Positions 35,752 to 58,985 of a stretch of DNA of 64,000 nucleotides are shown here, one piece after another. The number at the start of each line of letters is the position of its first letter. The stretch's first letter is position 1. Position numbers and translations under genes: made by a program. The stretch lies in assembly GCA_002423155.1 (NCBI GenBank), contig DIUV01000045.1:3276-67275 (forward strand), given 5' to 3'. This DNA is from Alphaproteobacteria bacterium UBA6149 (GTDB lineage Bacteria > Pseudomonadota > Alphaproteobacteria > Rickettsiales > UBA998). Below the pieces are notes generated by a model. The model was given only the letters and a program-made list of their open reading frames with translations. It was not told the DNA's origin and ran no database searches.

Positions 35752-35753
35752 GT

Positions 35754-36656: not shown

Positions 36657-36722
36657 TATTGATTACCAAGTTTTAGGCTCATTGCCAGTTCGTTATTACC
36701 AAGTACAGTTAAAATATAATAA

Positions 36723-38182: not shown

Positions 38183-39892
38183 ATGAGCATCAACCTGCAT
38201 CTTCCCACCCAAGGTGAATCACTACGCCCGACCATCACTGTTATTGGTGTGGGTGGAGCTGGCGGTAACGCAGTGAACAATATGATTAGCTCTGGCTTAT
38301 CTGGTGTAGAATTTGTGGTTGCAAATACTGATGCGCAAGCGTTGGACAATGCCTTAACTGATCGCACTATTCAGCTAGGCGCTAGCCTGACACGTGGTTT
38401 GGGTGCGGGTGCAGATCCCGATATTGGCTCACGCGCAGCCGAGGAAGCTTTGGACGAAATCGCTGGCTTTATCCAAGGTAGTAATATGGTGTTTATTACT
38501 GCGGGTATGGGCGGTGGAACTGGCACCGGCGCAGCTCCCGTAGTGGCGCGAATGGCGCGTGAACAGGGAATTCTCACTGTGGGAGTGGTAACTAAGCCAT
38601 TCCAGTTTGAAGGCACCATGCGTATGCGCTTAGCTGAGCAAGGTTTGCGTGAGTTACAACAATATGTTGATACGCTTATTGTTATCCCCAATCAAAACTT
38701 ATTCCGCCTTGCTAATGAAAAAACCACTTTTGCCGAAGCGTTCCGCATGGCGGATGAAGTTTTGCATTCAGGCGTACGTGGTGTGACTGATTTGATGGTT
38801 AAACCGGGCTTGGTAAACTTGGATTTTGCTGATATTCGCACCGTAATGCGCGAAATGGGCAAAGCAATGATGGGCACTGGTGAAGCAACCGGACAAAAAC
38901 GCGCAATTGAAGCAGCGGAATCAGCTATATCTAATCCTTTGTTGGATGATGTATCTTTGAAGGGTGCGCGTGCGGTGTTAATTAACATCACTGGTGGACC
39001 AGATATGACCTTGTTTGAGGTGGATGAAGCCGCGAATCGTATTCGTGAGGAAGTTGATGCGGATGCTAATATTATCTTTGGTTCAACCTTTAACCCAGAG
39101 TTAGAGGGTTTAATGCGCGTTTCCGTAGTGGCAACGGGGATTGATGCTGCTAATATGGCGAATTTAAGCAACGCAAACACCAATAAAAACACAGAAACCC
39201 AAGCAGATAAGAAAAACGATGCTTCAAAGCGCCCCTTTAGCTATATGCCCATTCGTGGGCTAGACGCTAACCGTCGGGAAATGAAACCAAATGAGAGCAA
39301 TCAAGCAACTGAAAATACTCAAAAATCAAATGCTAACTTGCCGCGCGAAGAATATACTGCCCCAGAGGCGCAAAATAATTATGAGACGCAAATACAAGCA
39401 GCGGCACAAAATGCTGCATCTACTTCCGCAGCACAGAATTTTCATAATAATATACCTACGAATTTTCCAACCGAGCAGTTTTTTGCTGCTGAAGAAGCAC
39501 CAGAAAATAATTATGCCGATAATTCCCAAAATTCTGCGCAACAAAATACCCCGCAAACCCCAGGTCCGCTTTTTGTAAATCCTACCCCTGCACCAGCTCC
39601 GCATAACCCAGCTCCACGCGGTTATGAAACTTCTTACTCGCGCAACCGTGAGGAAAAATCCGCACCGGTATCTTCTTCTGCCAATAATGGGTTTGGATTA
39701 TTTAATAAATTAGCTGGCGTGGGTCGTGCCATTTCCGCAGCACGTGCACAAGATGAAGAAAAAGGACGTGGCAGTGCTCACGCAGTGGAAGTTTTTGATC
39801 GCCAACGAGTTGAAGCCACTGAGAATGTAAGCAATAAAGCAATGGAAGAAGATTATGACATCCCAGCTTTTTTGCGCCGACAAGCTAATTAG
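38183..39892 (+). CDS. ftsZ: Cell division GTPase FtsZ (long Q/N/P-rich linker)
   Basis: [37 protein letters not shown]. It has a low-complexity linker of about 220 aa and a conserved C-terminal peptide ([13 protein letters not shown]). Confidence 0.95.
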
Positions 39893-40522: not shown

Positions 40523-41017
40523 ATGTGCCCACAATATAATAGTGCAGCAAATATAGAATCCGTAAATTCACCATCAATATCTTTCAAATTTCGCACATTA
40601 GAAGATGTGCAAATAATATCTGAGCAAGTATCTAATCTATGCCCACACCCCTCTCAAGCAATTTTGGGGATTATAGAAATGATGTTAAATGCGGTTGAAC
40701 ATGGCAATCTTGGTATAGAATATTTTGAAAAAACTAAGCTCATGTTTGAAAATAATTGGCATAAAGAAATTGAAAAACGCTTAAAAATGCCACAAAACCT
40801 AGATAAATTTGCCACCATAAGTTTAGATAAAACTAAAACCCAAACCATAATCACCATAAAAGACCAAGGAAATGGCTTTGATTGGAAAAATTATCTGGAT
40901 ATATCCCCCGAAAGAATGGCAGACCCAAATGGTAAAGGCATTGCCATTAGCCGCATGTCTTTCAATGAAATAAAATATAATGACTGCGGAAATGAAGTTG
41001 TGTGCTTTATCGGTTAG
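40523..41017 (+). CDS. Stand-alone GHKL ATPase-domain protein, RsbW/SpoIIAB-like (anti-sigma-factor-type Ser kinase fold)
   Basis: N-box EMMLNAVEHGN, G1 KDQGNGFDW, G2 GKGIAISRM. 164 aa. There is no STAS or PP2C partner gene nearby. Confidence 0.6.
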   Translation: MCPQYNSAANIESVNSPSISFKFRTLEDVQIISEQVSNLCPHPSQAILGIIEMMLNAVEHGNLGIEYFEKTKLMFENNWHKEIEKRLKMPQNLDKFATISLDKTKTQTIITIKDQGNGFDWKNYLDISPERMADPNGKGIAISRMSFNEIKYNDCGNEVVCFIG

Positions 41018-41046: not shown

Positions 41047-41305
41047 GCAATTTCCACCCTACACGACAGTACCGTTAATATTACGAAGCTATTGAATGGT
41101 AAGTATTTATTTCTTAAAATCGCTCTCTCCGTCGTCATTCCTGCTGCGGCTAAGAATCTCTTTTTCCGCTTGTGAGTGCCTCGTTTAGGGCGAAAGAGAT
41201 TCTTAGCCGCAGCAGGAATGACGACGGAGAGAGCGAACTTTTTTATTGTATTTCAATATATAAATGCCTTGTTAATACTACTGTCGTGTAGGGTGAGCAA
41301 TTTCA
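41047..41305. repeat. Family-B variant nested palindrome (copy B6)
   Basis: The outer inverted repeat is caccctacacgacagta / tactgtcgtgtagggtg. The inner one is cgctctctccgtcgtcattcctgctgcggctaagaatctcttt / aaagagattcttagccgcagcaggaatgacgacggagagagcg. Confidence 0.8.
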
Positions 41306-41562
41306 CCAATTATTAAGATCTTAACTATTGTTTTTCTATACACAACAATGCCATCAATAACAGATCCATAATATTGATATATAATATTTTTTATGAAGAA
41401 TACATCCATCGTAATCCCGCCGCAGGGCGGGATCCAGGTTTAGCCACATACTGCGTATTCGTGGTTAGGCATGGATCCCGCCCTGCGGCGGGATGACAAC
41501 GTCTTGTTCTATAACAATACTAAAAAACAATAGTTAAAATTTTAATAATTGGTGAAATTTCC
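41297..41562. repeat. Family-B nested palindrome (copy B7), abutting B6
   Basis: The outer inverted repeat is gcaatttcaccaattattaagatcttaactattgttttt / aaaaacaatagttaaaattttaataattggtgaaattt. The core is cgtaatcccgccgcagggcgggatcc / ggatcccgccctgcggcgggatgacaacg. Confidence 0.8.
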
Positions 41563-41749
41563 CTGCACAAAAAATATCTTGACATTTCTTAAGCAAGTAT
41601 TAAGAAGAGGTTGTTACTTTCCTTTTTTGTCAGGTTCATTAGAATTTTACGGATTAGGCTAAGCTGACTTAAGGCACACATAGATGTGGGCTGGATGTTT
41701 GCAAGGATAGCTTCAAAATTTAATTTTTTAAAATTTCGGAGTTCCAATC

Positions 41750-42163
41750 ATGAAAAAAAATATAGTAGCTATACTGTTATTGTTATCTGCATCTTTTGTA
41801 GCGTCCGCCGATGCAACTTGGGCGACTAAAGCCCCTGACATTGACGTGGATCTTCCTACGACGAGAGCAGAACAACTGGTAGCATCGACCCCTTACGTTT
41901 CGGCGGCGGGAAAAACGATTACTATCACCGATGCTGCTGGAAAAAAACGCCTTGCGCGTGTATTGTTTCGCTGTTCTTGGTCAGTTCGCAACGGCAGGGT
42001 TTTACATGACGGTGTCACTTGCGTAACCGATCAAGTACAACCTGATTTTGCCTTCGTTCCAAAAGTGAGCGGCAAAACGGTTGCACTGCGCTTCACTCCG
42101 CATCTTGCTGCGGTTTTATCAGCAATTACGGCAACAGCTGAAGGTGTTTTCTCTAAGCTCTAA
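41750..42163 (+). CDS. Hypothetical secreted protein
   Basis: The signal peptide is MKKNIVAILLLLSASFVASADA. I recognise no family. By eye it is richer in G+C than its neighbours. Confidence 0.5.
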   Translation: MKKNIVAILLLLSASFVASADATWATKAPDIDVDLPTTRAEQLVASTPYVSAAGKTITITDAAGKKRLARVLFRCSWSVRNGRVLHDGVTCVTDQVQPDFAFVPKVSGKTVALRFTPHLAAVLSAITATAEGVFSKL

Positions 42164-42178
42164 GCTTTAGGGTGGGTC

Positions 42179-42212
42179 TGGGCGCTCCCTCGTTTTTACG
42201 AGTGGGCGCCCA
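42179..42212 (+). terminator. Imperfect hairpin after the secreted-protein gene
   Basis: tgggcgc-tcc-ctcgt-tttt-acgag-tgg-gcgccca, followed by ttctttt. Confidence 0.4.
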
Positions 42213-42340
42213 TTCTTTTAACCAGCAACAAAAAATAAAAAATTCCCCTTGTCCAACATTCCTGTCATAATTCTGTCACTCATAAATGCTACCTGCTTGC
42301 CTACAAATAAAAAAAAACATAAAAATAAAAAACGGTACAC

Positions 42341-43330
42341 ATGAAAAAATACCATTATTTAGTAACGGGGGGTGCAGGGTTTATTGGGTCGCATCTGGTG
42401 CGTATTTTGCTGAAATCTGGCTGTCAGGTTACGGTTTTGGATGATCTTTCTACAGGAAAATCCGAGAATGTGCCAGCGCAAGCGCGTTTGATCGTGGGGG
42501 ATACGGCGCAGGCGAATATTTTTGATAATTTATTGAAAAATATTGATGGGATCTTTCACCTCGCGGCGATTGCCTCGGTTGAGCGCTCGCAGTTAGAGGG
42601 ATTTCGTGCACATCAGGTGAATTTGGGGAGCATGGTTAATTTGCTAGACTCCATCCAGCGCAGCCGCCGCACTATCCCGGTGGTTTATGCTTCCTCCGCT
42701 GCTGTTTATGGTAATAATACTGAAAAACCTATTTCAGAAAACACGCCCACTGCACCGCTTTCGGCCTATGGGGCGGATAAATTAGGTTGTGAATTTCATG
42801 CGCGGATTGCCTCGCATCTGCATCTTACTCCCACAATTGGGCTACGCTTATTCAATGTTTATGGACCGGGGCAAGACCCTTCCTCGCCTTACTCGGGGGT
42901 TATATCCTTGGTGGGCAAACGCATAACTAATGGTGAGGCAGTTAATATTTATGGCGATGGCAAACAATCGCGCGATTTTGTGTTTGTGGGAGAAGTGGCG
43001 GATAGTTTTTATCGGGCGATGAATTTATTACATGGTGAGCAGACCCGTTTTGGCATTTTGAATGTTTGTACAGGCAAATCTACCTCTATATTAGAACTTA
43101 CCGCTTTGATTGCGGATATTGCTGGGGTTCAGGCGCAGATTTGCCATCTGGCACCACGCGCAGGGGATATTCGCTTTTCTCAAGGGGATGCTAGTTTGCT
43201 TAAAAAAATGCTCGGACGTGCTCCCTCTATGCCCTTGGCAAATGGTTTGAACTTTACTTTATCTAGTTTTTCGGAATTTTTATTGCCCAATTTTAATAAA
43301 AAGCTTGGAAATCAATTAAACTTCGGTTAA
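42341..43330 (+). CDS. NAD-dependent extended-SDR sugar-nucleotide 4-epimerase (PelX-like position at the head of the pel locus)
   Basis: VTGGAGFIGSHLV Rossmann motif, a catalytic YxxxK (SAYGADKL), and the SSAAVYG pattern. It ends 9 nt before the pelB-like gene. Confidence 0.8.
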   Translation: MKKYHYLVTGGAGFIGSHLVRILLKSGCQVTVLDDLSTGKSENVPAQARLIVGDTAQANIFDNLLKNIDGIFHLAAIASVERSQLEGFRAHQVNLGSMVNLLDSIQRSRRTIPVVYASSAAVYGNNTEKPISENTPTAPLSAYGADKLGCEFHARIASHLHLTPTIGLRLFNVYGPGQDPSSPYSGVISLVGKRITNGEAVNIYGDGKQSRDFVFVGEVADSFYRAMNLLHGEQTRFGILNVCTGKSTSILELTALIADIAGVQAQICHLAPRAGDIRFSQGDASLLKKMLGRAPSMPLANGLNFTLSSFSEFLLPNFNKKLGNQLNFG

Positions 43331-43339
43331 CAACCCCTT

Positions 43340-45781
43340 ATGAAAACTTCGCATTGGATAATATTTGGCACAACTGCCGTAGCAGCTGTTGCGGTTAGTG
43401 CACTATTAATACCCAGTGCGCAGGACTCCGCGCGTATAAATTTACGTGGGGGCAATACAGAAAAAGCGCGCACTCAATTAGAAGCGGAGCTTGCTCAATC
43501 AGGTGAATTAACCACCGCATTAGCGCGTGATTTATCCGAAGTTTACCTACAAGAAAATAATATAGAAAAAGCCGTTTATGTGATGGATAGTTTTGTAAAA
43601 AAACATCCCCAAGATAAGCAAGCCACAGAAAGATTGGCGAGTCTTCAGACTATGCTGCCAAAGCCAGCAGCAGAACCAACGCCATTATTACCTGCCGCAG
43701 AGCCAGCTAAATTAGCAGAAATTGCTCCCCTGCCCTCGCTCCCTCCCATTGAGGTTAAAAATAATATTCCTGCGGTAACTAATATAGTACCAACGGCGCA
43801 GCCAGTTAAACTTACCCCTCTAAAAAACAAAACAAAGCCCAACAACAACTTACCAAAAAAACCTGATTATAATTCACTAGCCTATCAGATGTTAGAGCAT
43901 GGTGATAAAAATAAAGCGGTTGCCATGTTTGAAGTAATGGCAAAAGGTTCACAACCTGGTAGTGCAAAAATCAAACAACTATTATTTGCCGTAGCCCAAC
44001 TACCTTCCGCGCAGGCAATCAGCTGGATTGAAGCACGCCCATTATTGCTAAAAGATAAAGGCGTTCGCGATTGGTATGCAGAGCAACTAGGCAAAAGCCC
44101 AGATTTCCCTGAACATTTCTCCAAGCTTTTACCCAAAGCAAAAGCCGATAAAAATTATGCGGCAATTCTTGCTAGGGCCGCAAATTCAGGCGGATATGAC
44201 AAACAATCCGCGCAAATATTGGACATACAAGCTAAGTTAGAGCCAGAAAATCCACTTCCTTTGCGCCAATTAGCGATGAATGCCTGGCAGATTGGCGATT
44301 ACACAGCAGCGAAAATATATTTAGAAGAAGCAGTGCACTCAAAAGGAAGCGACCCTGAGAAATGGCGGAGTTTTTTCTATCTTGCTGAAATTTATCGAAG
44401 AGAAGGTGCAGGTAAAGATACGGATTACTATCAAAAATCTTTACAGGAAATTAAGCCTATTAGCACAATAACTGCTGATGTGGTTTCTGCCAAAGCGCGT
44501 TCTTTATTATGGATAGGTGAAGCTAGTGCAGGCATAAAAATCTTTGATGAAGGATTAAAACAATTCCCCAAAGACGAAAATCTCCGCGCAGATTATATTG
44601 CGACGCTGATAGAATTGAAACAATATAAACCTGCCATCGCATTATTTCCGCAGGAAATATCGGCGGATGTAAATATGCAAATACGTTACAAATTATTAGG
44701 CGCACGCATTGCTTTAGAAACAGGGCATGCACAAGATGCTACGGATAGACTCACCGAATTAGAGGCAGAAACTAATTATAGAAATTCCGAAGTAATGGGT
44801 TATGCCGCCAGCGCTGCCTGGTATGTGGGCAATAGTGAAAACGCATTACGCAAAATTGCCCAAGCAAAAGCCTTGGCTTTGCATAATGAAGACATCAGCA
44901 AATTAGCGCGAGATATAGAGCGCAATACTGCACCACATGTTTTGGCAGATGAAGAATGGATAAATCGTTCGGGTGGCGTGCAAGAGCGTGTGGATACAAT
45001 AGGATTTAGTGCCGCCATTAATGACAAAATAGATGTGGGCGTCACTGGACAAAACCGCTTGATTGACACCAGAGAGCGCAAAAAACAGAACCAACAATCA
45101 GCTGAAATTTATGGACAAATCATGCTGAATGATGAAAGATGGTTACGCGCTGCGCTTTATGCGAATGAGCGTACTTTAGGCGCAGGACTAGATTATAATT
45201 TCTTAAATAGTCTGGGTACGACTAAAATTACGGCTGAATTGCGCCGCCCGTATTTTGAGCTGCCACAGGCAAGTTTGCAAAATATCACCCGGGATAGAAT
45301 TGCCCTCACCCAGCGATGGCAGCCTTCTAATGATTGGGATATAAAAGGCAGTGTGGGGCTGAATAATTATGGCATAGATGACGAAGATAATGCTTATAGC
45401 GCTACTTCAGTGGATGCTTCAATCGTGCGGCGCATATTTGATTCTCCTTATGTGGGAATTGGTTATGGCTTAAACGCTGAATATAAAGCCCATAAAGCAA
45501 AAAAAGCCGATGGCACGCCGCAAGTTAATTTACAAACCAGAGAAATCCATGCAGTGGCACTTAGCAGTAGCTACGAGATAAACCAAAATCTACTGGCAGA
45601 AGGTTTAGCAGGTTATGCAGTAGATAGATTTGGCGGTAATGGACCATTGGTGGAAGGAAAACTCACCCACACAATAGCAGAAAATTGGGACATCAGCACC
45701 CATGCAGGTTACGGGTTTGATAATAATAATGGCGGTGGAGATGTTGCCCGTTTTGGCATTTCTTTACGGCGTAGATTTTAG
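43340..45781 (+). CDS. pelB: PelB-like outer-membrane export protein (N-terminal anchor, Pro-rich linker, TPR-like repeats, C-terminal beta-barrel)
   Basis: 813 aa with an N-terminal TM/signal segment and helical repeat regions. The C-terminal third is rich in alternating beta-strand patterns and ends FGISLRRRF (an OMP-type terminal Phe). It occupies the position directly upstream of pelD. Confidence 0.65.
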   Translation: MKTSHWIIFGTTAVAAVAVSALLIPSAQDSARINLRGGNTEKARTQLEAELAQSGELTTALARDLSEVYLQENNIEKAVYVMDSFVKKHPQDKQATERLASLQTMLPKPAAEPTPLLPAAEPAKLAEIAPLPSLPPIEVKNNIPAVTNIVPTAQPVKLTPLKNKTKPNNNLPKKPDYNSLAYQMLEHGDKNKAVAMFEVMAKGSQPGSAKIKQLLFAVAQLPSAQAISWIEARPLLLKDKGVRDWYAEQLGKSPDFPEHFSKLLPKAKADKNYAAILARAANSGGYDKQSAQILDIQAKLEPENPLPLRQLAMNAWQIGDYTAAKIYLEEAVHSKGSDPEKWRSFFYLAEIYRREGAGKDTDYYQKSLQEIKPISTITADVVSAKARSLLWIGEASAGIKIFDEGLKQFPKDENLRADYIATLIELKQYKPAIALFPQEISADVNMQIRYKLLGARIALETGHAQDATDRLTELEAETNYRNSEVMGYAASAAWYVGNSENALRKIAQAKALALHNEDISKLARDIERNTAPHVLADEEWINRSGGVQERVDTIGFSAAINDKIDVGVTGQNRLIDTRERKKQNQQSAEIYGQIMLNDERWLRAALYANERTLGAGLDYNFLNSLGTTKITAELRRPYFELPQASLQNITRDRIALTQRWQPSNDWDIKGSVGLNNYGIDDEDNAYSATSVDASIVRRIFDSPYVGIGYGLNAEYKAHKAKKADGTPQVNLQTREIHAVALSSSYEINQNLLAEGLAGYAVDRFGGNGPLVEGKLTHTIAENWDISTHAGYGFDNNNGGGDVARFGISLRRRF

Positions 45782-45793
45782 GGATAAATAAAT

Positions 45794-47137
45794 ATGCAGC
45801 CTGATAAAAAAACTTGGGATAGAAAAACTTGGTTAGGCATACGCGTAGTTGCTTTTGCAGAAATCGCTATCTTACTGGCATTTATACTTATAATCGCTAT
45901 GTTTGCTGGCGATACAGAGCGGTTTCGCAATGTTAATCCGCATCCATTTTGGCTAGTTATATTACTACCTGCTTGTCAATATGGTACGCGTGAAGGGGTT
46001 TTGGCAACTATTGCCGCATCTTTTGCCTTATTATTAGGCAACTTACCCCCCGAAAATATTACCCAAGATCATTATAGCTGGTGGTTAGGTGTATGGAAAT
46101 TGCCGATATTATGGTTAGGCACGGCGGTTATTTTAGGTGAGTTGCGCCAGCGTCATCGTCGGGAAAATGACCGTTTAGTTACTCAATGCCATGAAGCAAA
46201 TATGCGCGAGAATAACATTGCCGAGGCTTATGCCAAAGTACGCAGCAGCAAGGAAGAATTAGAATTACGCATCAGCGGAAAATTACGCTCCGGCTTAGCC
46301 GCGTGGCAAGCTTCTAAAAGGTTGGAATCACTAGACAAATCCGAGATAATTGCCGGGGCAGCAGATTTAATCAGCGCAGTATTATCTGCGGAGAGTTTTT
46401 CTATTTATACGATTGAAAATGGCAAACCATTTTTAGCTTATGCGCATGGTGAATTATCAAACGGCAATTTAGACAAACCAGATTTTCATTTTGGCAGTCA
46501 GCTCTATAATGCCTTATTGGCAGAAACTCAGCCATTATGTGTTATCAATCCTGACCATGAATTATTATTGTCTGGCAAAGCGGTATTGGCAGGAGTATTG
46601 CGCGATAAAGTTACTAATACTGCGATGGGTTTTTTATTGATTGATAAACTGCCCTTTAGCGAACTACATTTTTCGGGTATTGCTAGTTTTTCTGCGCTTT
46701 GTGAATGGGTGGGTACTTCTTTGTCCGCTACGCAAAAATATAAAGATGTGCGGGAAACCAGTATATTAAATCCTGACCATCAATGTTATAGCAATGGTTA
46801 TTATACTCGTTATGTTGATTATATTGAGTCACTGGCTAAACGCCTGAATTTTGATGTAACCCGCATCAACGCCGCTTTGAAAAACCCCGAAAATTTATCC
46901 TCGCATGAGCAAGCAAATGCTGCCCGTTCACTTGGTGCAAGTGTGGATGAAGTGTTGCGGCAAGTAGATTTAGCATTTGATTATCGCAAAGATGGTAGTG
47001 ACATCGCGGTTATTTTGCCTGCTACCAGCCTTAATCAGGCGCAATTGGTAATTAGCAAGCTCGAAGCCGCTTTGACTAATCGTGGGGTGGACAAAAAATT
47101 ATTTAATTTTACGGTGCAGGCAATCCATGCAGCGTAA
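45794..47137 (+). CDS. pelD: PelD-like c-di-GMP receptor (4 TM, GAF-like, degenerate GGDEF-like domain)
   Basis: 447 aa with four N-terminal TM helices, a central GAF-like region, and a C-terminal region that has RQVD (RxxD, 46958-46969) but no GG(D/E)EF. Its position and size match PelD. Confidence 0.72.
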   Translation: MQPDKKTWDRKTWLGIRVVAFAEIAILLAFILIIAMFAGDTERFRNVNPHPFWLVILLPACQYGTREGVLATIAASFALLLGNLPPENITQDHYSWWLGVWKLPILWLGTAVILGELRQRHRRENDRLVTQCHEANMRENNIAEAYAKVRSSKEELELRISGKLRSGLAAWQASKRLESLDKSEIIAGAADLISAVLSAESFSIYTIENGKPFLAYAHGELSNGNLDKPDFHFGSQLYNALLAETQPLCVINPDHELLLSGKAVLAGVLRDKVTNTAMGFLLIDKLPFSELHFSGIASFSALCEWVGTSLSATQKYKDVRETSILNPDHQCYSNGYYTRYVDYIESLAKRLNFDVTRINAALKNPENLSSHEQANAARSLGASVDEVLRQVDLAFDYRKDGSDIAVILPATSLNQAQLVISKLEAALTNRGVDKKLFNFTVQAIHAA

Positions 47138-48236
47138 TTATAATAATTATAATAATTATAGTAATGATGATAATGTAATCAGCCTGCATGTTGCTGCGCA
47201 AGAAACCAGGCCACAAATTGCTGTCTGGGCAATTGCTTTGTTTATGAGCGTTATGCATGGTTTAAACCTGATAGTATTATTAGCTAATGCACATTTTTAT
47301 GGCTGGCTAATTTGCCATTTTGCTTTGGCGATAATTACTTTTTTTATCACTGCCATCATTAATAAAAATGCTAATGAAGATAGCCGCTTTTTGCAGTTGC
47401 TTTCCTTGGTCTCGCTGCCGTTAGGTATTTTCGGTACGCTGGGGGTTTTGCTTAGTTTAATTCGCATAAAATCTTACCTGAAACGCGCCTTATCTTTTGA
47501 ACAATGGCGTGATTTTATTTTCCCCCCCTTGGTAAAAAGCTTAGCACAAAATATTGATGAATCCTTGTTATCGGGGCGCGATGAGGCGGCATCTACTTAC
47601 CAAGTAACTTCTTTTTATGATGTTATTTTATACGGAAATGAAGCACAAAAACGCCAAGCCTTAACGCGGATGACCATGAATTTCAGCCCGGTTTTTGCTC
47701 CTTGTTTTTTACGTGCCCTACAAGATTCCTCGCCAACTATTCGTGTGCAAGCAGCTACTTCTATTGTGCGGATTGAACATGAATTTACCCAAAAAACTTT
47801 TGAGCTGGAAGCTGCCTATAAAAAGAATCAAAAAGTTAGTTTGGCATTGGCAAACCATTATGATGAATATGCATTCACAGGCTTGTTAGATGGACAACGA
47901 GCACAAGAATATCGTGAAAAAGCGCTTAAATTATACAGCGAAGCTTTTGCACAAGGTGCAGGACGCAACGAAAGAACTCGCCTGATTTATGGTAGATTAT
48001 TAATGCGTAGTGATATGCTCGAAGATGCTATCCAATGGTTTAATCAATGTATAAAAACTGGGGATGAACCAAGCATGATAGTGCCATGGCTGGCAGAAAG
48101 TCTATATGCGGCACAAAAATGGGAAGAATTACGCGAAATATCCCGCCGTTTCCATACTCAGCTTACAGGCGGAGTTGGTGAAGCATTACAATATTGCTCT
48201 GCTCCCGCTTGGGCAAGAAAGGCGGTGGCTTTATGA
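47127..48236 (+). CDS. pelE: PelE-like inner-membrane TPR protein
   Basis: The start MQRNYNN overlaps pelD by 11 nt. It has N-terminal TM helices and then helical-repeat (TPR-like) sequence. The stop overlaps the pelF start (ATGA). Confidence 0.62.
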   Translation: MQRNYNNYNNYSNDDNVISLHVAAQETRPQIAVWAIALFMSVMHGLNLIVLLANAHFYGWLICHFALAIITFFITAIINKNANEDSRFLQLLSLVSLPLGIFGTLGVLLSLIRIKSYLKRALSFEQWRDFIFPPLVKSLAQNIDESLLSGRDEAASTYQVTSFYDVILYGNEAQKRQALTRMTMNFSPVFAPCFLRALQDSSPTIRVQAATSIVRIEHEFTQKTFELEAAYKKNQKVSLALANHYDEYAFTGLLDGQRAQEYREKALKLYSEAFAQGAGRNERTRLIYGRLLMRSDMLEDAIQWFNQCIKTGDEPSMIVPWLAESLYAAQKWEELREISRRFHTQLTGGVGEALQYCSAPAWARKAVAL

Positions 48237-49723
48237 TTAATCATTTTAATAATAAAACTGCGGATGTTTGCTTAATCTTAGAAGGAAGCTATCCGTATGT
48301 GCGCGGTGGAGTTTCTTATTGGACGCATGATTTAATCTTGCAACATCCGAATTTAAGCTTTCATATTGTAAGTATTTTACCGCGCGATGCTCGGTTAGAA
48401 TCTTATTATGAAATGCCTGCTAATGTGGTGGGTTGCACTAATATTCATCTGCAATTATTGCCTAAACATAAAATTAGCAATAATACCAACTCGCTCTTGC
48501 ATAAAAAAATAATTCATAATCTGCACAAGCCTCTGAAAGCGCTAACCACAGGCACGGCTAATTTAGAAGATTTTAGAACTATTCTAAATGCAGTTTCCCA
48601 AATACAAGATCCACAAACATTGCTGGATAGCCCAGAAGCTTGGGCATTGCTTTGCACGCTTTATGAAGCATCTTACGAAGAAAGTTCCATGCTGGATTAT
48701 TTCTGGTCTTGGCGTGCGGTAATGGGGGCATTATTTTCTTTGAACAATGCCAAAATACCCAAAGCACGGATTTATCATGCGATTAGCACCGGTTATGCAG
48801 GCTTGTTTGCCACTCGTGCCCATTTGGAAACCAAGCGTAACATGCTGATTACCGAACACGGAATTTATACTAATGAGCGGCGCATCGAAATTGCTACCGC
48901 CGATTGGCTGGAAGAAACCGCCTCTAATAGCCTGACTATTGACTATACTCGCCGCGATTTACGCGATTTTTGGATAACTAGTTTCACTAATTATTCACGC
49001 ATTGCCTATGAAGCAGCGGCGCAAATCATCACCTTGTTTGAAGGTAATCGCCAAGCACAATTAGCCGATGGTGCTCCGGCTGAGAAATCTATTGTTATTT
49101 CTAACTCGGTAGATTTTGATAAATTCTCACGCATAAACCCGCAGGCAAAATCACGTCCAACTATTGGCATGATTGCGCGGATTACCAACATCAAAGATGT
49201 TAAATGCTTCATTCGCGGTATGGCAATTTTGCGGCAAGCGCACCCAGAAGCACAAGCAATGATAATTGGTCCGACCGAAGAAACCCCTGATTATGCACAA
49301 GAATGTATCGAATTAGTTGCCCATCTCGGACAAGCTGAACATATTATATTCACAGGAATGATGGATATTGTAAAAGCGCTGGAAGAAATAGATGTAATCG
49401 TGCTCACCAGTATCAGCGAAGCACAGCCGTTAATCGTGCTAGAAGCAGGTGCGGCAGGTATTCCTATTATTGCTACTGACGTGGGTGCTTGTGCAGAAAT
49501 GCTGCGCGGCAAAGCGGATGAGAAACCTAATTTGGGCGATGGCGGCATTATTATTCCTACTGCCAACCCCGTAGCCTTAGCTAATGCCGCGCAATATCTC
49601 TTATTAAACCCACAAATGCGTAAGCAATATGGGGAAAATATGCGTAAACGCGTAGCCACATATTATACGGTGGCGGTGCAACAAGAGGCATATAAAGAAA
49701 TATATAAAAAATGGATGGATTAG
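48233..49723 (+). CDS. pelF: PelF glycosyltransferase (GT4)
   Basis: The N-terminus (ADVCLILEGSYPYVRGGVSYWTHDLI) closely resembles P. aeruginosa PelF as I recall it. It has a GT-B C-terminal motif (LTSISEAQPLIVLEAGAAGIPIIATDVG). 496 aa. Confidence 0.88.
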   Translation: MINHFNNKTADVCLILEGSYPYVRGGVSYWTHDLILQHPNLSFHIVSILPRDARLESYYEMPANVVGCTNIHLQLLPKHKISNNTNSLLHKKIIHNLHKPLKALTTGTANLEDFRTILNAVSQIQDPQTLLDSPEAWALLCTLYEASYEESSMLDYFWSWRAVMGALFSLNNAKIPKARIYHAISTGYAGLFATRAHLETKRNMLITEHGIYTNERRIEIATADWLEETASNSLTIDYTRRDLRDFWITSFTNYSRIAYEAAAQIITLFEGNRQAQLADGAPAEKSIVISNSVDFDKFSRINPQAKSRPTIGMIARITNIKDVKCFIRGMAILRQAHPEAQAMIIGPTEETPDYAQECIELVAHLGQAEHIIFTGMMDIVKALEEIDVIVLTSISEAQPLIVLEAGAAGIPIIATDVGACAEMLRGKADEKPNLGDGGIIIPTANPVALANAAQYLLLNPQMRKQYGENMRKRVATYYTVAVQQEAYKEIYKKWMD

Positions 49724-49741
49724 TATGGATGGATTAGTTAA

Positions 49742-51157
49742 ATGGCAGGCATAGGTTTCGCATTAAAGAGCTTAACTCGGCAAGATAATTTGCTCGGAGT
49801 ATGGGGAGCTTTTATCCATGCGGCATTAGTAGTGGCAGGTCCATGGATTTTTACCGTTTTAGGAATTGCACTAATTGCCCTGGTAACTGGTGGAAATAAT
49901 GACCTGACTACCTTAAATTTTCGCGGCATTATAACTTATAATTTTTCTTTTTCTTTAGTATTAACCGCGCCTATTACCATTGTAGTTACACGCTTTTTAG
50001 CCGATCAAATCCATCTACGGGATGTAACTCAAGCACCTGCAGTGTTGTTTTACGCACTAAAGATTATCATGATGGGCCTGTTTCTAGTCGGAGGTTTATT
50101 TTATTTTTTAGCGACCAGCTATCAATTTAGCATTCAAATCTCTGCCATAGTTAATCTCTGTCTAATCGGAGGAATTTGGCTGCTGGGGATTTATTTATTG
50201 GCATTAAAAGATTATTTAAGTGTGAGTTTTTCTTTTGCTACTGGCATGTTAGTCGGAGTAATCGCGGCTTTTTTATTGAGTAATTATGGAGTGCTGGGTG
50301 TTTTAAACGGTTTTTCTATTGGTTTAACCTGGATTTTCTTTTGCCTGTTGGCAAAAATATTGGCGGAATATCCTTCACGCCTAGATGAGCAAACAAATTG
50401 GAATACACCCACCCAAATTCAGCCCACCCAATTTAAAGGATATTTCAAACACCATCGCTGCTTGATGATTTTCAGCTTTTGCTATAGCGCAGCAATCTGG
50501 GTGGATAAATGGATATTTTGGTATTTTGCCCCCGAAGCGGAATCTTTGAGCGCAGGACTACATTATTTTGGGATATATGATAATGCATTATTTCTTGCAT
50601 ATCTCACCTTATTACCTGCCCTTGCGCTATTTGTGATTAATGTGGAAACTGATTTTTTCAAGAATTATCAAAGATTCTATGAGGATATTTTATCTCATCA
50701 ATCTTTGCGAATTATCCGTAGTAATCAGAAAAAAATTCTCAGCTCTTTATTGCGAGGATTGCGGCATTTTCTAATCTTACAAGGAGTCTTTTCCTTGCTC
50801 ATTATTACTACTGCCCCTGCTTTATTAGATTTTTTACATCTTTCTTTTCTGCAAGTCGGCATGTTTAAATTAGGAACTTTGGGTGCATTTTTTCATGGAT
50901 TAATTTTATTTGGATTAGTGCTGTTATCTTACTTTGATTGTCGGCGTGAATTAGTAATTTTATCGGCTAGTTTTCTCATCAGTAATATTATTTTCACGTT
51001 CACGAGCATTTTTCTAGGTTTCAATTGGTATGGCTATGGATATTTCTTCTCCTGCTTACTAACCAGCTTATTAACAATGATAACTTTATTAAACCACGTG
51101 CGCCATTTGCCTTATCACGCTTTTGTAACACATAATCAGGCGGTTGAAGCGGTTTGA
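49742..51157 (+). CDS. pelG: PelG polysaccharide exporter-like membrane protein
   Basis: It starts MAGIGFALKSLTRQD..., like PelG MAGIGFELRK. 471 aa and polytopic, with about 12 TM helices. Confidence 0.88.
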   Translation: MAGIGFALKSLTRQDNLLGVWGAFIHAALVVAGPWIFTVLGIALIALVTGGNNDLTTLNFRGIITYNFSFSLVLTAPITIVVTRFLADQIHLRDVTQAPAVLFYALKIIMMGLFLVGGLFYFLATSYQFSIQISAIVNLCLIGGIWLLGIYLLALKDYLSVSFSFATGMLVGVIAAFLLSNYGVLGVLNGFSIGLTWIFFCLLAKILAEYPSRLDEQTNWNTPTQIQPTQFKGYFKHHRCLMIFSFCYSAAIWVDKWIFWYFAPEAESLSAGLHYFGIYDNALFLAYLTLLPALALFVINVETDFFKNYQRFYEDILSHQSLRIIRSNQKKILSSLLRGLRHFLILQGVFSLLIITTAPALLDFLHLSFLQVGMFKLGTLGAFFHGLILFGLVLLSYFDCRRELVILSASFLISNIIFTFTSIFLGFNWYGYGYFFSCLLTSLLTMITLLNHVRHLPYHAFVTHNQAVEAV

Positions 51158-51170
51158 TAACAAATATGTC

Positions 51171-51209
51171 TGGGAGAGTATCTGGCTGGGAGAGTATCTG
51201 GCTGGGAGA
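51171..51209. repeat. 16-bp tandem duplication that includes the 3' end of tRNA-Gln
   Basis: tgggagagtatctggc (51171-86), tgggagagtatctggc (51187-202), tgggaga (51203-09). The last unit is the tRNA acceptor strand. Confidence 0.85.
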
Positions 51210-51272
51210 CTAGGATTCGAACCTAGATTGACGGAGTCAGAGTCCGCTGTCCTACCATTAGACGATCTCCCA
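51199..51272 (-). tRNA. tRNA-Gln (anticodon CUG), CCA encoded
   Basis: A manual cloverleaf on the minus strand fits: TGGGAGA acceptor, D arm GTCT/GGAC, anticodon arm GCGGA-CTCTGAC-TCCGT, T arm CTAGG-TTCGAAT-CCTAG, then TCTCCCA-G-CCA. 74 nt. Confidence 0.9.
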
Positions 51273-51333
51273 AATAATAAACCCAGCAATCCCTAGCGCA
51301 AATGTTCTATATATAGCAAGCAGTTTTTGTTAT

Positions 51334-51522
51334 GGCAATTTCACCAATCGTTAATTTTGTCTTTTTGCAATAAAACTCTCTATTGTCATGCAGCACGTAG
51401 AGCGGCATCCATGCAAAACCATTGGCTTATCCGCTAGTTGATAGGCATGGATACCGCCCTGCGGCGGCATGACAATAGATATTTTAGTGAAAAAAGACAA
51501 AATTAACGATTGGTGAAATCGC
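51334..51522. repeat. Family-B long-form nested palindromic element (copy B8)
   Basis: ggcaatttcaccaatcgttaattttgtctttttg ... caaaattaacgattggtgaaatcgc. The core is gtcatgcagcacgtagagcggcatccatgc / ggcatggataccgccctgcggcggcatgac. Confidence 0.85.
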
Positions 51523-51631
51523 ACTGTAGTTTTTGCGAGATATAAAATTCATAATAAAATACCTAATTGCATCAAGCTACATCTCCTGTTACTTATCCAA
51601 CAAGTTTGCAAAAAAATTGAAAGGAACTATT

Positions 51632-52195
51632 ATGAAAATTGACGGCGTATCTATTCGTCCCGGCTATGTACTTGAATATAACAACAATCTTTGGGCAGTG
51701 ACCAAAACACAGCATACGCAACCAGGAAAAGGTGGCGCCTATATGCAGGTGGAAATGAAAGATGTTAAGCATGGCACCAAAACCAATGTACGCTTTCGTT
51801 CGGACGAAAAAGTAGAAAAAGTTCGCCTGGATCAAGTTGATTTCCAGTTTTTATATGTAGAAGGTAATGATATTCATTTCATGCACCAAGAAACTTTTGA
51901 ACAAATAACTCTACCTGTTAGCCTGCTAGATGAGCGCGTTGCCTATTTGCAAGAAGGTATGATTGTGCAAATAGAAATGTATGACGAAGACGCAATCAGC
52001 GCACAATTACCTGAACATGTAGTTTTAGAAGTAGTGGAAACTGAGCCCGTGGTTAAGGGTCAGACTGCGGCTTCTTCTTATAAACCTTCTATTTTAAATA
52101 ATGGGGTTAGGGTTATGGTGCCACCTTTTATTGAAACCGGCACTAAAATCATTGTAAATACTACTGATTCTTCGTACGTTGAACGTGCGAAATAG
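51632..52195 (+). CDS. efp: Elongation factor P
   Basis: [44 protein letters not shown]. An RBS (aaagga) lies 7 nt upstream of the ATG at 51632. The longer ORF from 51533 runs into repeat B8. Confidence 0.92.
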
Positions 52196-52244
52196 TTTAT
52201 TTAAGAAGCGGAGATAATATATAGTGGAAGCAGCCAGTAATAAT

Positions 52245-53036
52245 ATGCCCATCCAATCACCATTAATTAATGTGATGGTGTCGGCGGTACGTAAAGCCTC
52301 TCGCGGATTGATGCGCGATTTTGGCGAAGTGGATCATTTGCAAATTTCGCGCAAAGGTCCTTCTGATTTTGTTACTGAAACGGATTTGCGTACCGAAAAA
52401 TTATTAAAAGCGGAGCTGCATAAATCGCGCCCTAAATTTGGTTTTTTGCTGGAAGAAAGTGGCGAATTTCCTAGCGAAGAATCCGAATTTCGCTGGGTGG
52501 TCGATCCTTTAGACGGCACGACTAATTTTATCCATGCTATACCTTATTTCTGTATTTCTATTGGGGTAGAAAAAATCACCGATAAAGGGAGTGAAATCAT
52601 TGCAGGGGTGATTTATGATCCTATCCATGATGAATTATTCATGGCGGAAAAAGACAAAGGCGCTTATCTGAATCAAAGACGTTTACGGGTTTCCCCTCGT
52701 CGTTCTGATTTTTATTTCGTTACGGGTACGTCGCGTAGTTCTAGCCCTTATGCTGGGGCATCTGCTAAGTTAAATCAACATGTTACTACGTTAGACGGCG
52801 TTTTTCGTCGCAGTGGTTCCGCCGCTTTAGATTTGGCTTATGTGGCAGCTGCGCGTTATGATGCTTGCTGGTTTCCTAATTTAAAAAAATGGGATATGGC
52901 AGCAGGAATAATTCTGGTAAAAGAAGCAGGCGGCATTATCTCGCCACTTGGTCACGCGCAAGACGCCTACCAAGATGGCGCAATCTTGGCGGCCAGCCCT
53001 GAATCTCATCCGTTATTAATTGTCGGACAATCTTAG
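52245..53036 (+). CDS. suhB: Inositol monophosphatase family protein (SuhB-like)
   Basis: WVVDPLDGTTNF, WDMAAG, and the EESG pattern. Start chosen at the ATG at 52245. Confidence 0.82.
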   Translation: MPIQSPLINVMVSAVRKASRGLMRDFGEVDHLQISRKGPSDFVTETDLRTEKLLKAELHKSRPKFGFLLEESGEFPSEESEFRWVVDPLDGTTNFIHAIPYFCISIGVEKITDKGSEIIAGVIYDPIHDELFMAEKDKGAYLNQRRLRVSPRRSDFYFVTGTSRSSSPYAGASAKLNQHVTTLDGVFRRSGSAALDLAYVAAARYDACWFPNLKKWDMAAGIILVKEAGGIISPLGHAQDAYQDGAILAASPESHPLLIVGQS

Positions 53037-53198
53037 AACCTGTCGCCAATCTTTTTATTTTGGCAATTTTTTCTAGTTTTGAGCGAAAATAGCAAGACAA
53101 TTCGAGAGTATAGCTATTCTATTTCAAGAATTGTCTTGCTATTTGCAGCCAAAATTGGGAGAAATGGACAAATAAAAAGATTGGCGACAGGTTCTTAA
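53033..53198. repeat. Family-D palindromic element
   Basis: The terminal inverted repeat is agaacctgtcgccaatctttttatt / aataaaaagattggcgacaggttct. The inner one is aaaatagcaagacaattc / gaattgtcttgctatttg. The left end overlaps the suhB-like stop codon. Confidence 0.8.
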
Positions 53199-53213
53199 TT
53201 TTAAGCAGGTTAT

Positions 53214-55013
53214 ATGCACTACAATCGTACTAAAAACTTATTAATTGCCACCTCATTATGCATTGGGGGAGCAATCATGCTTTCTAATTCCGCACAAGCA
53301 CGCATTCGTTTGCTGCCTAAACAACCAAGCATAGAAGTGCATTTAGAAGTTTTGGATAATTTAAGTGCAGAATTTTATCCACCAGCTTTTGAAAAAACTC
53401 CGTTGGTAAAACCATTGGCAAAACCATCATCGGCAAACGCAAATAAAGCAACCGAGCCAGCAAAAGCTGCGCCGATTGCTACTCCTGTAACCGCAACACC
53501 TCCTGCAGATAAAACTAACGCAAGCATAGAAAAAGGTCTGCCTGCTATTATTAGCGCACCTCCTGCGTTTAAAAGTACTAAACCATCGACAACTAAAACC
53601 GAAAAAGCCGAAGAATTTAAACCCATAAAGCCAAAAATAGAAAAGCCGAAGGAAAAAAGCCGAAAACCAGCCAAAAAAACAGAGCCGAAAACTCCCCCTA
53701 AAAAGCTGGAAAAACTGCCCGAGCCTGAGCTAAAACCTTCTGATTTAGATGATTTTTCCAAACTTCCAGCGATGAAACCACGCGAGGAAGCTCCAGAGGA
53801 AGTTAAAGTAGAAGACAAAAAAGCGCCTGTGCTTATTCCATTGCCAGAAAAAGCTAAAAAAGCCCCAGTAATAAAACCAGAAGTAATGGAACCAACATTA
53901 CCAGCAATGCCCGAAGCAAAAAAGGAATCATTGCCTGCGCTGCCGCCTGTTCCTGCTTTAAGAGTAAAACCAGCTGAACTACCAGCAAAATTACCAGCAG
54001 CACCAATAGCGCCCACCGAACAAGCCGCGCCTTTGCCGCCAATTTCAGCCGATGAATTGCCAGCCCCTCCACCAGCTGATGCAGCAAAACCAGAAGCCCC
54101 CAAAGCAATAGAAGATAAAAAATCAGAAGGTTGGTTTGGAAAAATCAAATCCAAAATGTTTAGTGGAGATAAACCAGAAACAATAGAGCCAAAAACTGAA
54201 GATAAAGCATTACCAAAGCCGCCTAGCGCTGATGATATGCCGCCAATTCCTGCTGTTCCTGCTAACTTGCCAACGGCGGCGGATAAATCTGGCTTGCCAG
54301 AATTACCCACAGGAAATGCTCCCAATATGGAACTTCCCGAAATGCCCGCATTACCCGTTATGCCTGCGGATAAAGCTCCGTCTGGTAATGCAAGCAATAA
54401 CGCGGCTTTACCTGATCTGCCAGGATTACCATCCAAAACCCCTCCCGCTCCATTGCCTGATGCAGCGAAGAAGGCGGTTGATACGGCAGTAACCCCAGTT
54501 GCCGAAACGCAATTACCAATGTTGGACGCAAAAACTCCCCCCAGCAAATTACCAACCCCAGACTTGCCAACACCAGCATTACCAAGTTTGAGCCCAGAAC
54601 CTACACTACCGCCGATAAAAGAAGCGGTGAAAAAACCTGAGCCACAAAAAACAGAGTCCCCAAAGCCAGAGCAAGTAGAACCCGCTCCAGCTAAATCAAC
54701 CAGTGATAATGTATCATTAAGTATAGCTTATGGTGCAAATGAAACCGACGTACCTGCCAGCGTACAAGGTAAACTAAAAGAACTAGCACAAAAACTAATT
54801 AGCGATAAAAAATTGACAGTTAGCGTTATTTCTTACGCCGCAGGAACCGAAGATCAAGCAAGCATTGCTCGCCGCGTATCACTTTCTCGAGCATTAGCAG
54901 TGCGTGCATTTATTATTGATCTGGGCGTAGATAATTTACGCATTAATGTTCAAGCACAGGGCAATAAAAATCCCAGCGGCAACCCAGAACGTACCGATAT
55001 TGTTATAAATTAG
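53214..55013 (+). CDS. Pro/Ala/Lys-rich envelope protein with C-terminal OmpA/MotB-like domain
   Basis: An N-terminal signal/anchor (LLIATSLCIGGAIMLSNSAQA), about 450 aa of P/A/K/E-rich low complexity, and a C-terminal peptidoglycan-binding-like domain (SIAYGANETDVPA...ISYAAGTEDQASIARRVSLSRALAVRAFIIDLGV). Confidence 0.7.
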   Translation: MHYNRTKNLLIATSLCIGGAIMLSNSAQARIRLLPKQPSIEVHLEVLDNLSAEFYPPAFEKTPLVKPLAKPSSANANKATEPAKAAPIATPVTATPPADKTNASIEKGLPAIISAPPAFKSTKPSTTKTEKAEEFKPIKPKIEKPKEKSRKPAKKTEPKTPPKKLEKLPEPELKPSDLDDFSKLPAMKPREEAPEEVKVEDKKAPVLIPLPEKAKKAPVIKPEVMEPTLPAMPEAKKESLPALPPVPALRVKPAELPAKLPAAPIAPTEQAAPLPPISADELPAPPPADAAKPEAPKAIEDKKSEGWFGKIKSKMFSGDKPETIEPKTEDKALPKPPSADDMPPIPAVPANLPTAADKSGLPELPTGNAPNMELPEMPALPVMPADKAPSGNASNNAALPDLPGLPSKTPPAPLPDAAKKAVDTAVTPVAETQLPMLDAKTPPSKLPTPDLPTPALPSLSPEPTLPPIKEAVKKPEPQKTESPKPEQVEPAPAKSTSDNVSLSIAYGANETDVPASVQGKLKELAQKLISDKKLTVSVISYAAGTEDQASIARRVSLSRALAVRAFIIDLGVDNLRINVQAQGNKNPSGNPERTDIVIN

Positions 55014-55083
55014 ATTGATTGCGCACAACTACCCTACACGTTTTTGTCGCCATAAAATGCTTATAATACATTACACTACTATT

Positions 55084-56094: not shown

Positions 56095-56135
56095 GACACT
56101 TAACTATTAAATTCAAAGCGAGTATCTTAATTTAT

Positions 56136-58897: not shown

Positions 58898-58985
58898 AAT
58901 ACCTAACCCCTATAGTAGTTTTTGTGCAATGCATATAAAACCGCAAGTAACCGCAGAAGTAAAGCAAAAATATGCTTTTTATCAA

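Follow-up and report, generated by a model that had tools for sequence, protein, structure and literature searches.

The subject of this study is a Pel-type exopolysaccharide locus at positions 42341-51157 of a 64-kb stretch of contig DIUV01000045.1 (Alphaproteobacteria bacterium UBA6149), the whole of which we call the window. Six genes, pelX, a shortened pelB (its product is written PelB* below), pelD, pelE, pelF and pelG, follow one another with intact reading frames, and neither pelA nor pelC was found in the window. On balance, and with the reservations discussed below, we favor the view that they encode a functional, chromosomally inherited, minimal synthase-dependent exopolysaccharide system, gated by cyclic di-GMP (c-di-GMP), of an uncultured environmental alphaproteobacterium. 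Pel is among the most widespread biofilm polysaccharides, and the model of its secretion comes almost entirely from Pseudomonas aeruginosa, which needs every one of its seven pel genes for it. A locus without two of the defining features of pelABCDEFG, PelA and PelC, should be filed as a reduced Pel-like variant and not as a canonical member.

The open reading frames (ORFs) were re-located exactly, and they form six tightly packed genes on one strand, given here with the elements that bound them; lengths are in amino acids (aa) and TPR stands for tetratricopeptide repeat.

42170-42205, + strand: terminator-like hairpin with a T-run, between the gene of a small secreted protein and pelX (terminator scan and direct reading)
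42341-43330, + strand: pelX, predicted SDR-family UDP-GlcNAc/UDP-GalNAc C4-epimerase, 329 aa, first gene of the operon
43340-45781, + strand: pelB*, shortened PelB, 813 aa
45794-47137, + strand: pelD, predicted inner-membrane c-di-GMP receptor, 447 aa
47127-48236, + strand: pelE, predicted inner-membrane protein with TPR-like repeats, 369 aa, overlapping pelD by 11 nt
48233-49723, + strand: pelF, GT4 glycosyltransferase (predicted polymerase), 496 aa, overlapping pelE by 4 nt (ATGA)
49742-51157, + strand: pelG, polytopic inner-membrane component of the Pel exporter, 471 aa
51199-51272, - strand: tRNA-Gln(CTG), downstream boundary of the locus, 3' end toward pelG (ARAGORN; Rfam, 64 bits)

All six ORFs start with ATG, in agreement with gene calls made independently on metagenome contigs in which the locus is identical; the mechanical ORF list begins pelE at GTG 47082 and pelF at TTG 48194, and the lengths above are counted from ATG 47127 and ATG 48233. 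The junctions are +9, +12, -11, -4 and +18 nt, and the six co-directional genes with these spacings, as described in the first-pass annotation, are thus confirmed by the coordinates and start codons. The same annotation had placed the tRNA-Gln correctly, its distance past the pelG stop being 41 nt and not 40. Because the hairpin follows the secreted-protein gene, the operon begins at 42341 with pelX. No riboswitch or other Rfam family was found upstream of the operon in an Rfam scan, and promoter-like sites were not enriched there over shuffled sequence.

By sequence comparison the identities of PelF and PelG, which had been called from N-terminal signatures and size, are unambiguous. PelF matches NF038011 at 428 bits (cutoff 100), DUF3492 (PF11997) at 256 bits and the GT1 domain PF00534, shows the EX7E motif (E-AQPLIVL-E) in its translation, and keeps 122 of the 136 residues that are near-invariant in the clade of related loci described below; PelG matches PF16933 at 358 bits over its full length (1-461) and is 42% identical to PelG of Azospirillum, the closest cultured relative. 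The first gene is, on the same kind of evidence, a PelX orthologue with predicted C4-epimerase activity. Its product matches PF01370 at 172 bits, GxxGxxG and YxxxK motifs are readable in it, and its best relatives in the Protein Data Bank (PDB), 6WJB, 6WJ9 and 6WJA (220 bits, E=3e-64, residues 5-304), are PelX of P. protegens, a UDP-GlcNAc C4-epimerase according to the PelX paper, which bears out the earlier comparison of this gene with PelX. It is 49% identical to the epimerase heading the Azospirillum pel locus, and an epimerase takes the head position in 34 of the related loci.

PelD, PelE and PelB* are too divergent for direct recognition and are linked to their families by profile-profile or fold comparison, in which the assignments first made from architecture and gene order hold. 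The hhalign references were five annotated canonical pelABCDEFG loci from plasmids, and the clade alignments were drawn from 80 related genomic loci; eight cross-family controls gave probabilities of at most 0.2% (E 0.24-0.92). Against the five canonical sequences PelD aligned with 99.1% probability (E=6e-19, 379 columns), and PelE aligned with canonical PelE equally well (99.1%, E=7e-19, 301 columns). A phmmer search of the PDB gave no match to PelD, so hhalign and a fold search were needed to make the connection; the AF2 model (pLDDT 85) has as its top PDB fold matches the P. aeruginosa PelD structures 4eu0, 4dmz, 4etz and 4dn0. The Pfam model PelD_GGDEF (PF16963) did not match the window PelD, though it matches a canonical PelD. 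PelD is predicted to combine transmembrane (TM) helices and a long helix with a GAF domain and with a GGDEF domain that is degenerate and contains an RxxD inhibitory site (I-site), R389-Q-V-D392. The family profile matches GGDEF domains with this RxxD in register with the I-site of diguanylate cyclases, and R389 and D392 are invariant among 40 homologues. Since the position of the GGDEF motif itself reads DGSDI (xGEEY in many relatives), PelD would be a receptor and not a cyclase. Along its whole length the protein shares 35% identity with the product of the gene in the pelD position of Azospirillum; PelE is 34% identical to its Azospirillum counterpart and gives weak TPR/HEAT and PPR-like repeat matches. 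Elsewhere in the window lie a stand-alone GGDEF cyclase (27245-28291, 153 bits) and an ATPase with an MshEN domain (5897-7705), and judging from these domains the host organism has c-di-GMP signalling. The ATPase, of the type IV pilus/MSHA type with MshEN, a known c-di-GMP-binding module, at its N terminus, is accompanied by a T2SSF platform protein (5897-8925 for both).

The absence of pelA and pelC, the central claim of the first-pass annotation, holds throughout the window, that is, for 41 kb upstream and 13 kb downstream of the locus. Neither tblastn with the PelA proteins of Azospirillum and Azonexus nor hidden Markov models (HMMs) of canonical PelA and of its two separate parts in related loci, PelAh and PelA2, found any pelA in the 64 kb. 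For PelC, clade and canonical HMMs run on the ORFs and on six-frame fragments of the whole window gave nothing better than E=0.4, and tblastn gave nothing. The HMMs run on all ORFs were iterated; the fragment search applied HMMs at maximum sensitivity to every six-frame fragment of at least 25 aa, and degraded copies were thereby covered. The gap between pelB* and pelD is 12 nt, which leaves no room for pelC at its usual place. The small secreted protein directly upstream of the operon (sec137, 137 aa, 41750-42163, + strand) is an orphan that has a signal peptide but lacks a lipobox; neither Pfam nor NCBIfam gave a match to it, and none of the 80 related pel loci contains a homologue. We considered it as a replacement for PelC and rejected it, as it lacks the lipobox Cys, a match to the PelC HMM and any homologue in those loci, and the hairpin separates it from pelX.

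The missing pelC had been presented as a peculiarity of this locus, and that view did not survive comparison with its relatives. Among the 80 related loci of our census (L numbers are our labels for them), 57 have a single PelB; these come mostly from metagenome-assembled genomes (MAGs) labelled Rickettsiales or Alphaproteobacteria, with some from Acidobacteriota. In 55 of the 57 the PelB ORF ends within 62 nt of pelD, and PelC occurs in none of them. PelC is present only in 10 loci in which PelB is split and the gap between PelB and PelD is 630-1335 nt. Absence of pelC is therefore the norm of the single-PelB clade, and the window fits this clade with its one PelB ORF 12 nt before pelD. It departs from the clade in the length of PelB (813 aa against ~1280-1590 aa) and in having no stand-alone GH114 PelAh upstream.

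In the relatives pelA is usually two genes, one for the GH114 hydrolase PelAh and one for PelA2, a protein of ~780 aa that corresponds to canonical PelA after its hydrolase domain (hhalign columns 283-904). For 37 of the single-PelB loci 3 kb or more of sequence is available upstream; of these, 15 have both PelAh and PelA2, 18 have PelAh only, three have only a PelA2-like gene, and one (L048) has neither. L025, for which less upstream sequence is available, also runs directly from pelX to pelB, so that complete absence of pelA is a rare state, found in the window, L025 and L048. In a neighbor-joining tree of PelD, PelF and PelG the window stands on a long branch within the subclade that has both PelAh and PelA2, which makes its loss of pelA independent of those in L025 and L048. 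Its nearest relatives (L009, L010, L012 and L017, ~47% identity over the three proteins) all have PelAh and PelA2, and the best PelD match among the GTDB species representatives scanned is 43% identical. Given what PelA2 corresponds to, the loci with PelAh only are already without an in-locus deacetylase, and deacetylase-less pel loci, as predicted from gene content, may be common in uncultured Alphaproteobacteria.

The subclade with PelAh only comprises ~18-20 species-level loci (L022, L023, L027, L030, L032-L036, L039, L040, L049, L051, L053-L055, L058, L065, L070 and L081) with a PelB of ~1500 aa and no PelA2 in the locus. Many of them share, downstream, a PLP-dependent decarboxylase, a protein of the deoxyhypusine-synthase family, an SDF symporter and SecF; we considered the genes downstream of pelG in this subclade as a replacement deacetylase and rejected them as housekeeping genes. 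An unexpected host for a biofilm polysaccharide is the MAG labelled Chlamydiales that carries L079 (OY969414.1), with PelA2, a split PelB and PelD-E-F-G, followed downstream on the opposite strand by PelAh and two epimerases; no PelC was detected in this locus, which has a very long branch in the PelD, PelF and PelG tree.

The second departure of the window from its clade lies in PelB*. The protein is predicted to begin with a hydrophobic helix (aa 1-25) and ~2.5 TPRs (aa 27-104), followed by a linker (aa 105-175, nt 43652-43864) in which Pro makes up 17-20% of each 30-aa block, a region rich in TPRs and other alpha repeats (aa 176 to ~530) and a C-terminal porin domain (from about aa 510/540 to 813) that ends in Phe (RRRF); the TPRs were placed by Pfam matches. 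The length and the linker, both reported before, are as claimed, and the linker is unique to the window PelB in comparison with its orthologues, which have 0-7% Pro at the same position. The comparison with the Pseudomonas protein of ~1190 aa was correct as to the truncation and understated the loss, since the proper comparators are orthologues of ~1450 aa (1277-1589 aa when complete), with which PelB* is collinear in three blocks:

PelB* 1-105: aligned with orthologue 1-105
PelB* 105-175: Pro-rich linker, in place of orthologue ~110-670
PelB* 180-436: aligned with orthologue 670-969
Orthologue ~970-1072: no counterpart in PelB*
PelB* 448-813: aligned with orthologue 1072-1452, 32-39% identity

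By this alignment PelB* has lost, in frame, ~660 aa of TPR scaffold, of which ~560 aa are exchanged for the linker. The last 340 aa aligned with the canonical PelB barrel by hhalign through intermediate sequences (95.8%, E=7e-9, 287 columns, to the last residue) and also directly (77%, E=2e-5, 241 columns). Word-indexed homologue searches with PelB* alone or with a 20-sequence PelB alignment returned only the query or generic TPR proteins, and the AF2 model of PelB* served only to delimit helical and disordered segments. In a HMMER search of 1.84 billion representative proteins the strong PelB relatives are almost all of 1434-1504 aa, apart from fragments, and the only other complete short PelB is P0123 (849 aa). 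This protein is 45% identical to PelBs of the subclade with PelAh and PelA2, and it repeats the architecture of PelB*, with a TM helix, then a ~140-aa Pro-rich linker that takes the place of some ~750 aa of TPR sequence, then a short TPR region and a barrel. Its locus (L092:2-3175, on a 4.2-kb contig of 61% GC) places PelAh immediately before PelB, without an intervening PelA2, and where pelD would follow there is an aldo-keto reductase encoded on the opposite strand; it is a physically split pel system. The ~100-aa non-TPR insert of the orthologues (970-1072) was considered as a substitute for PelC and rejected, since the same insert is present in the split PelBs of PelC-bearing loci. PelB charge was compared as a possible marker of a neutral polymer. 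The charge of the barrel is alike across locus classes. The periplasmic part of the window PelB is the least anionic of 44; L048 and L025 rank fifth and sixth, and two PelA2 loci second and third.

Based on these observations, we propose the following scenario. PelX would make UDP-GalNAc from UDP-GlcNAc, and PelF would polymerize the sugar at the cytoplasmic face of the inner membrane. PelD, PelE and PelG would together form the inner-membrane complex that translocates the polymer, switched on by c-di-GMP bound at the retained RxxD I-site of PelD, and the polymer would leave the cell through PelB*, with its C-terminal porin in the outer membrane, without a PelC ring. In P. aeruginosa PelA docks on TPRs 9-15 and 13-19 of PelB, and PelC encloses the alpha-rich part lying before the barrel (PMC12022489). 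The lineage would have lost both pelA genes, that of the GH114 hydrolase and that of the ~780-aa deacetylase-containing PelA2, and in PelB the ~660 aa of TPR scaffold that correspond to the PelA-docking region, leaving a Pro-rich tether of 70 aa where ~560 aa had been. Both PelBs with truncated TPRs lack an adjacent PelA2, and these two cases suggest that, after its client had been lost, the scaffold was no longer needed. Such a system would yield a neutral polymer rich in GalNAc, unmodified and fully N-acetylated, provided that no unlinked deacetylase acts on it; canonical Pel, by comparison, is a GalNAc polymer with alpha-1,4 links that is partially de-N-acetylated.

Several points weigh against this scenario. 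The absence of pelA and pelC extends over 64 kb of the genome, and unlinked copies are possible. According to two studies, both the deacetylase activity of PelA and the PelC protein are needed for P. aeruginosa to make Pel (PMC10269871; PMC12141448), and a Pel system that functions without them would be an extrapolation from that model. The porin assignment of PelB* comes from profile-profile alignment only; PDB sequence searches with profiles of the full-length PelB and of its C terminus gave only generic TPR matches or none, and the single-sequence AF2 model, with a pLDDT of 45, is unusable for the barrel. About 18 related loci without PelA2 keep a PelB of ~1500 aa, so that loss of PelA2 is not sufficient for loss of the TPRs and the co-loss argument comes down to two cases. 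Lastly, the window proteins form a long branch and take the last or nearly the last place in how many invariant residues they retain, a pattern that would fit somewhat relaxed selection. In its strongest form, that a Gram-negative organism with no PelA anywhere in its genome exports a Pel-type GalNAc polymer without deacetylation or a PelC funnel, through a minimal PelB in which most of the TPR superhelix has given way to a flexible Pro-rich tether, the idea seems to us possible and rather doubtful.

The alternative that deserves most attention is that the locus is functional as one part of a split system, with a PelA-type deacetylase/hydrolase, and conceivably an outer-membrane lipoprotein, encoded elsewhere; the product would then be Pel of the usual kind, cationic and partially deacetylated. 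In the evolution of pel operons, changes in the place of pelA with respect to pelB, by rearrangement and relocation, are a documented theme (PMC7112194). Among the loci of our census PelAh stands outside its usual slot in L079 and L038, downstream of pelG or on the other strand, and L092, in which a short PelB and PelAh are physically apart from pelDEFG, shows that split systems exist in the clade. The need for deacetylation in Pel production by P. aeruginosa and the reach of our search, 64 kb of the genome, speak for this alternative too. However, no sequence resembling pelA or pelC lies within 41 kb upstream or 13 kb downstream, the part of PelB on which PelA would dock is deleted, and PelC is missing from every locus of the single-PelB clade. 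We consider a split arrangement unlikely, though a real competitor of the minimal self-sufficient system that we prefer.

A further alternative is decay: having lost pelA and most of the PelB scaffold, the locus would no longer export a polymer and would be drifting toward a pseudogene. The long branch, the lowest or near-lowest retention of clade-invariant residues, the lack of components that are essential in the model organism and the reading DGSDI at the GGDEF position of PelD, against xGEEY in many relatives, are in its favor. On the other hand, there are six intact ATG-started ORFs with coupled junctions. In PelD, PelE, PelF, PelG and the C terminus of PelB the window keeps 83-90% of the near-invariant residues of the clade, where other members average 93-97% and go down to 80-90%, so that its retention is low but within the range of other members; all catalytic and binding motifs that were checked are also kept. 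The two deletions in PelB preserve the reading frame, and the Pro-rich stretch of 70 aa is linker-like and not scrambled. Five metagenome assemblies, independent of one another, contain the identical locus (0-1 mismatch per 4-16 kb), and one of them could be traced to its sample, surface water of an oil-sands tailings pond; IMG 3300001605 is one of the samples that carry it. Taken together, these features make decay improbable, and we return to a functional minimal locus as the preferred reading.

Horizontal acquisition had also been put forward, on the grounds of G+C-richer genes at the 5' side and of the nearby tRNA, and recent acquisition is not supported by our data. The compositional part stands weakly: sec137 has 47.3% GC (z=+1.3) and the epimerase gene 45.4% (z=+0.8), against a background of 42.6 +/- 3.6% in 40 genes, but their GC at third codon positions (GC3) is unremarkable, all pel genes lie within 1.5 standard deviations of the 40 background genes for GC and GC3, and their codon usage is within the background range. 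No second copy of the 3' 16-25 nt of the tRNA-Gln (with up to two mismatches) occurs in the window, and no integrase or transposase was found among the Pfam-scanned flanking genes. The neighbors are of the housekeeping kind, with ftsZ and ddl-ftsQ-ftsA upstream and efp, an inositol monophosphatase-family gene, an OmpA-family gene, dus and ispDF downstream.

The upstream boundary is marked by two adjacent nested palindromic elements resembling MITE or REP sequences (41055-41295 and 41299-41559, with inverted repeats I1-I4), one a perfect 44-nt hairpin flanked by terminal inverted repeats of 24 nt, the other a 37-nt hairpin flanked by terminal repeats of 37 nt. Their core 17-mer, CCGCCGCAGGGCGGGAT, occurs six times in the window against 0.02 expected, among these sites, outside the two elements, 18320-18395 (a pair), 19274-19290 and 51451-51467. 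The pair lies inside the 3' part of an ORF (17721-18551), past its AAA_26 domain, and is reminiscent of the palindromic elements found inserted in genes of Rickettsia. A second dispersed family is a 212-bp intergenic repeat (90% identity) at ~51325-51535, between tRNA-Gln and efp, and at 58976-59186, 7.5 kb downstream. As the palindromic family is scattered over the window, its presence on both flanks of the locus is no evidence of mobility. An ENA metagenome contig (L001) is 99.99% identical to window positions 41050-57137, and its synteny with the window breaks at the outer edge of the palindromic elements; upstream of that point L001 (1-5255) has a CitMHS transporter, a Na+/H+ antiporter, an MscS channel and Omp85, where the window has ftsZ and HATPase_c_2. 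Either strains differ here by a rearrangement, or the assembly is chimeric at a repeat.

A recent genomic island integrated at the tRNA-Gln, for which one could cite the 41 nt between the locus end and the tRNA 3' end, the palindromic repeats on both sides (~41.06-41.56 kb and 51.45 kb), the different upstream neighborhood of L001 beyond 41050 and the slightly raised GC of sec137 and pelX, is very improbable and recent transfer is largely refuted, given the unremarkable composition, the missing tRNA repeat and integrase, a repeat family for which occurrence on both flanks is expected, an L001 break that may be an artefact of assembly at a repeat, and a Pel phylogeny that places the locus within an alphaproteobacterial clade whose PelAh-only branch has conserved chromosomal synteny.

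Other features of the window may be recorded here. The dcw cluster is broken in an unusual way, with ddl, ftsQ and ftsA at 34477-37610 (- strand) and a divergent ftsZ at 38183-39892 (+ strand), whose 569-aa product has a long C-terminal extension and matches the model of the alphaproteobacterial extension weakly. A gene for a 164-aa HATPase_c_2 protein resembling anti-sigma-factor kinases (40523-41017, + strand) separates ftsZ from the palindromic elements, and a 791-aa ORF with no Pfam match (28795-31170, + strand) follows just past tRNA-Ile. A possible second polysaccharide locus (19365-24704) has genes for a 796-aa GT2 glycosyltransferase (22314-24704, - strand), a 525-aa protein with no Pfam match (20733-22310) and a membrane acyltransferase of the Acyl_transf_3 family (19365-20528, - strand).

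In comparison with known Pel systems, the locus shares with pel(X)ABCDEFG of P. aeruginosa and P. protegens homologous PelX, PelB, PelD, PelE, PelF and PelG in the same relative order; P. protegens likewise has pelX as its first gene. PelD resembles the Pseudomonas protein in its TM segments, GAF domain and degenerate GGDEF domain with an I-site, and PelB in its N-terminal helix, its TPRs, fewer as they are, and its predicted C-terminal porin. Unlike the Pseudomonas system, that of the window lacks the PelA hydrolase/deacetylase and the dodecameric lipoprotein ring of PelC, and its 813-aa PelB with a Pro-rich linker stands against a protein of ~1190 aa that has, in P. aeruginosa, 19 TPRs and a porin of 16 strands. 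Closest are the pelC-less single-PelB loci (L008-L059 and others, 42-47% identity), which also begin with pelX and continue from a PelB abutting PelD to PelD-E-F-G; they differ in a PelB of 1277-1589 aa, in the nearly constant presence of the GH114 PelAh and in that of PelA2 in about half, the full lack of pelA being shared with the window only by L025 and L048 and the short PelB only by P0123 of L092. The loci with split PelB and PelC (L006, L060, L062-L064, L068, L069, L071, L082 and L086, from Azospirillum, Magnetococcales and gammaproteobacteria) have PelD-E-F-G of the same subfamily (31-44% identity) and, in Azospirillum, pelX at the 5' end, but carry PelAh, PelA2, a PelB in two pieces of ~1020 and ~530 aa and, between PelB and PelD, one or two PelC proteins resembling GNA1162/LptE. 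The Azospirillum locus thus runs pelX, PelAh (GH114), PelA2, two TPR proteins (the split PelB), PelC (GNA1162-like) and PelD-E-F-G. The Gram-positive pelDEA(DA)FG loci of Bacillus cereus and Streptococcus are likewise reduced to a PelD-E-F-G core without PelC, and c-di-GMP control through PelD is described in Bacillus (PMC7112168; PMC7890745). They always keep the deacetylase PelA_DA and have no PelB, there being no outer membrane, whereas the window keeps PelB and lacks the deacetylase.

In the searchable literature we found no description of pelC-less Gram-negative pel loci, a statement that concerns the searchable part and not the literature at large. Two of the published surveys of Gram-negative pel loci were seeded with PelC and by their design could not have seen loci without pelC, which may account for the gap.

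This study shows a large, mostly uncultured clade of 57 species-level loci with a single PelB and no PelC, many of them also without the deacetylase-containing PelA2. The locus of the window is the extreme of this clade, with no PelA at all and a PelB devoid of the PelA-docking scaffold, and it is a natural minimal version of the well-known Pel system, not a new kind of system. If the locus does not function, it records in what sequence of steps a Pel system comes apart. If it does, its six genes make a compact cassette with which to ask which Pel components outer-membrane export needs, and whether uncharged poly-GalNAc can be secreted and serve as a matrix. Should export without PelA and PelC prove true, the cationic polymer, the electronegative PelC ring and the docking of PelA on PelB would be lineage-specific elaborations, and the minimal Gram-negative Pel secretion machine would be PelB*DEFG, with its precursor supplied by PelX.

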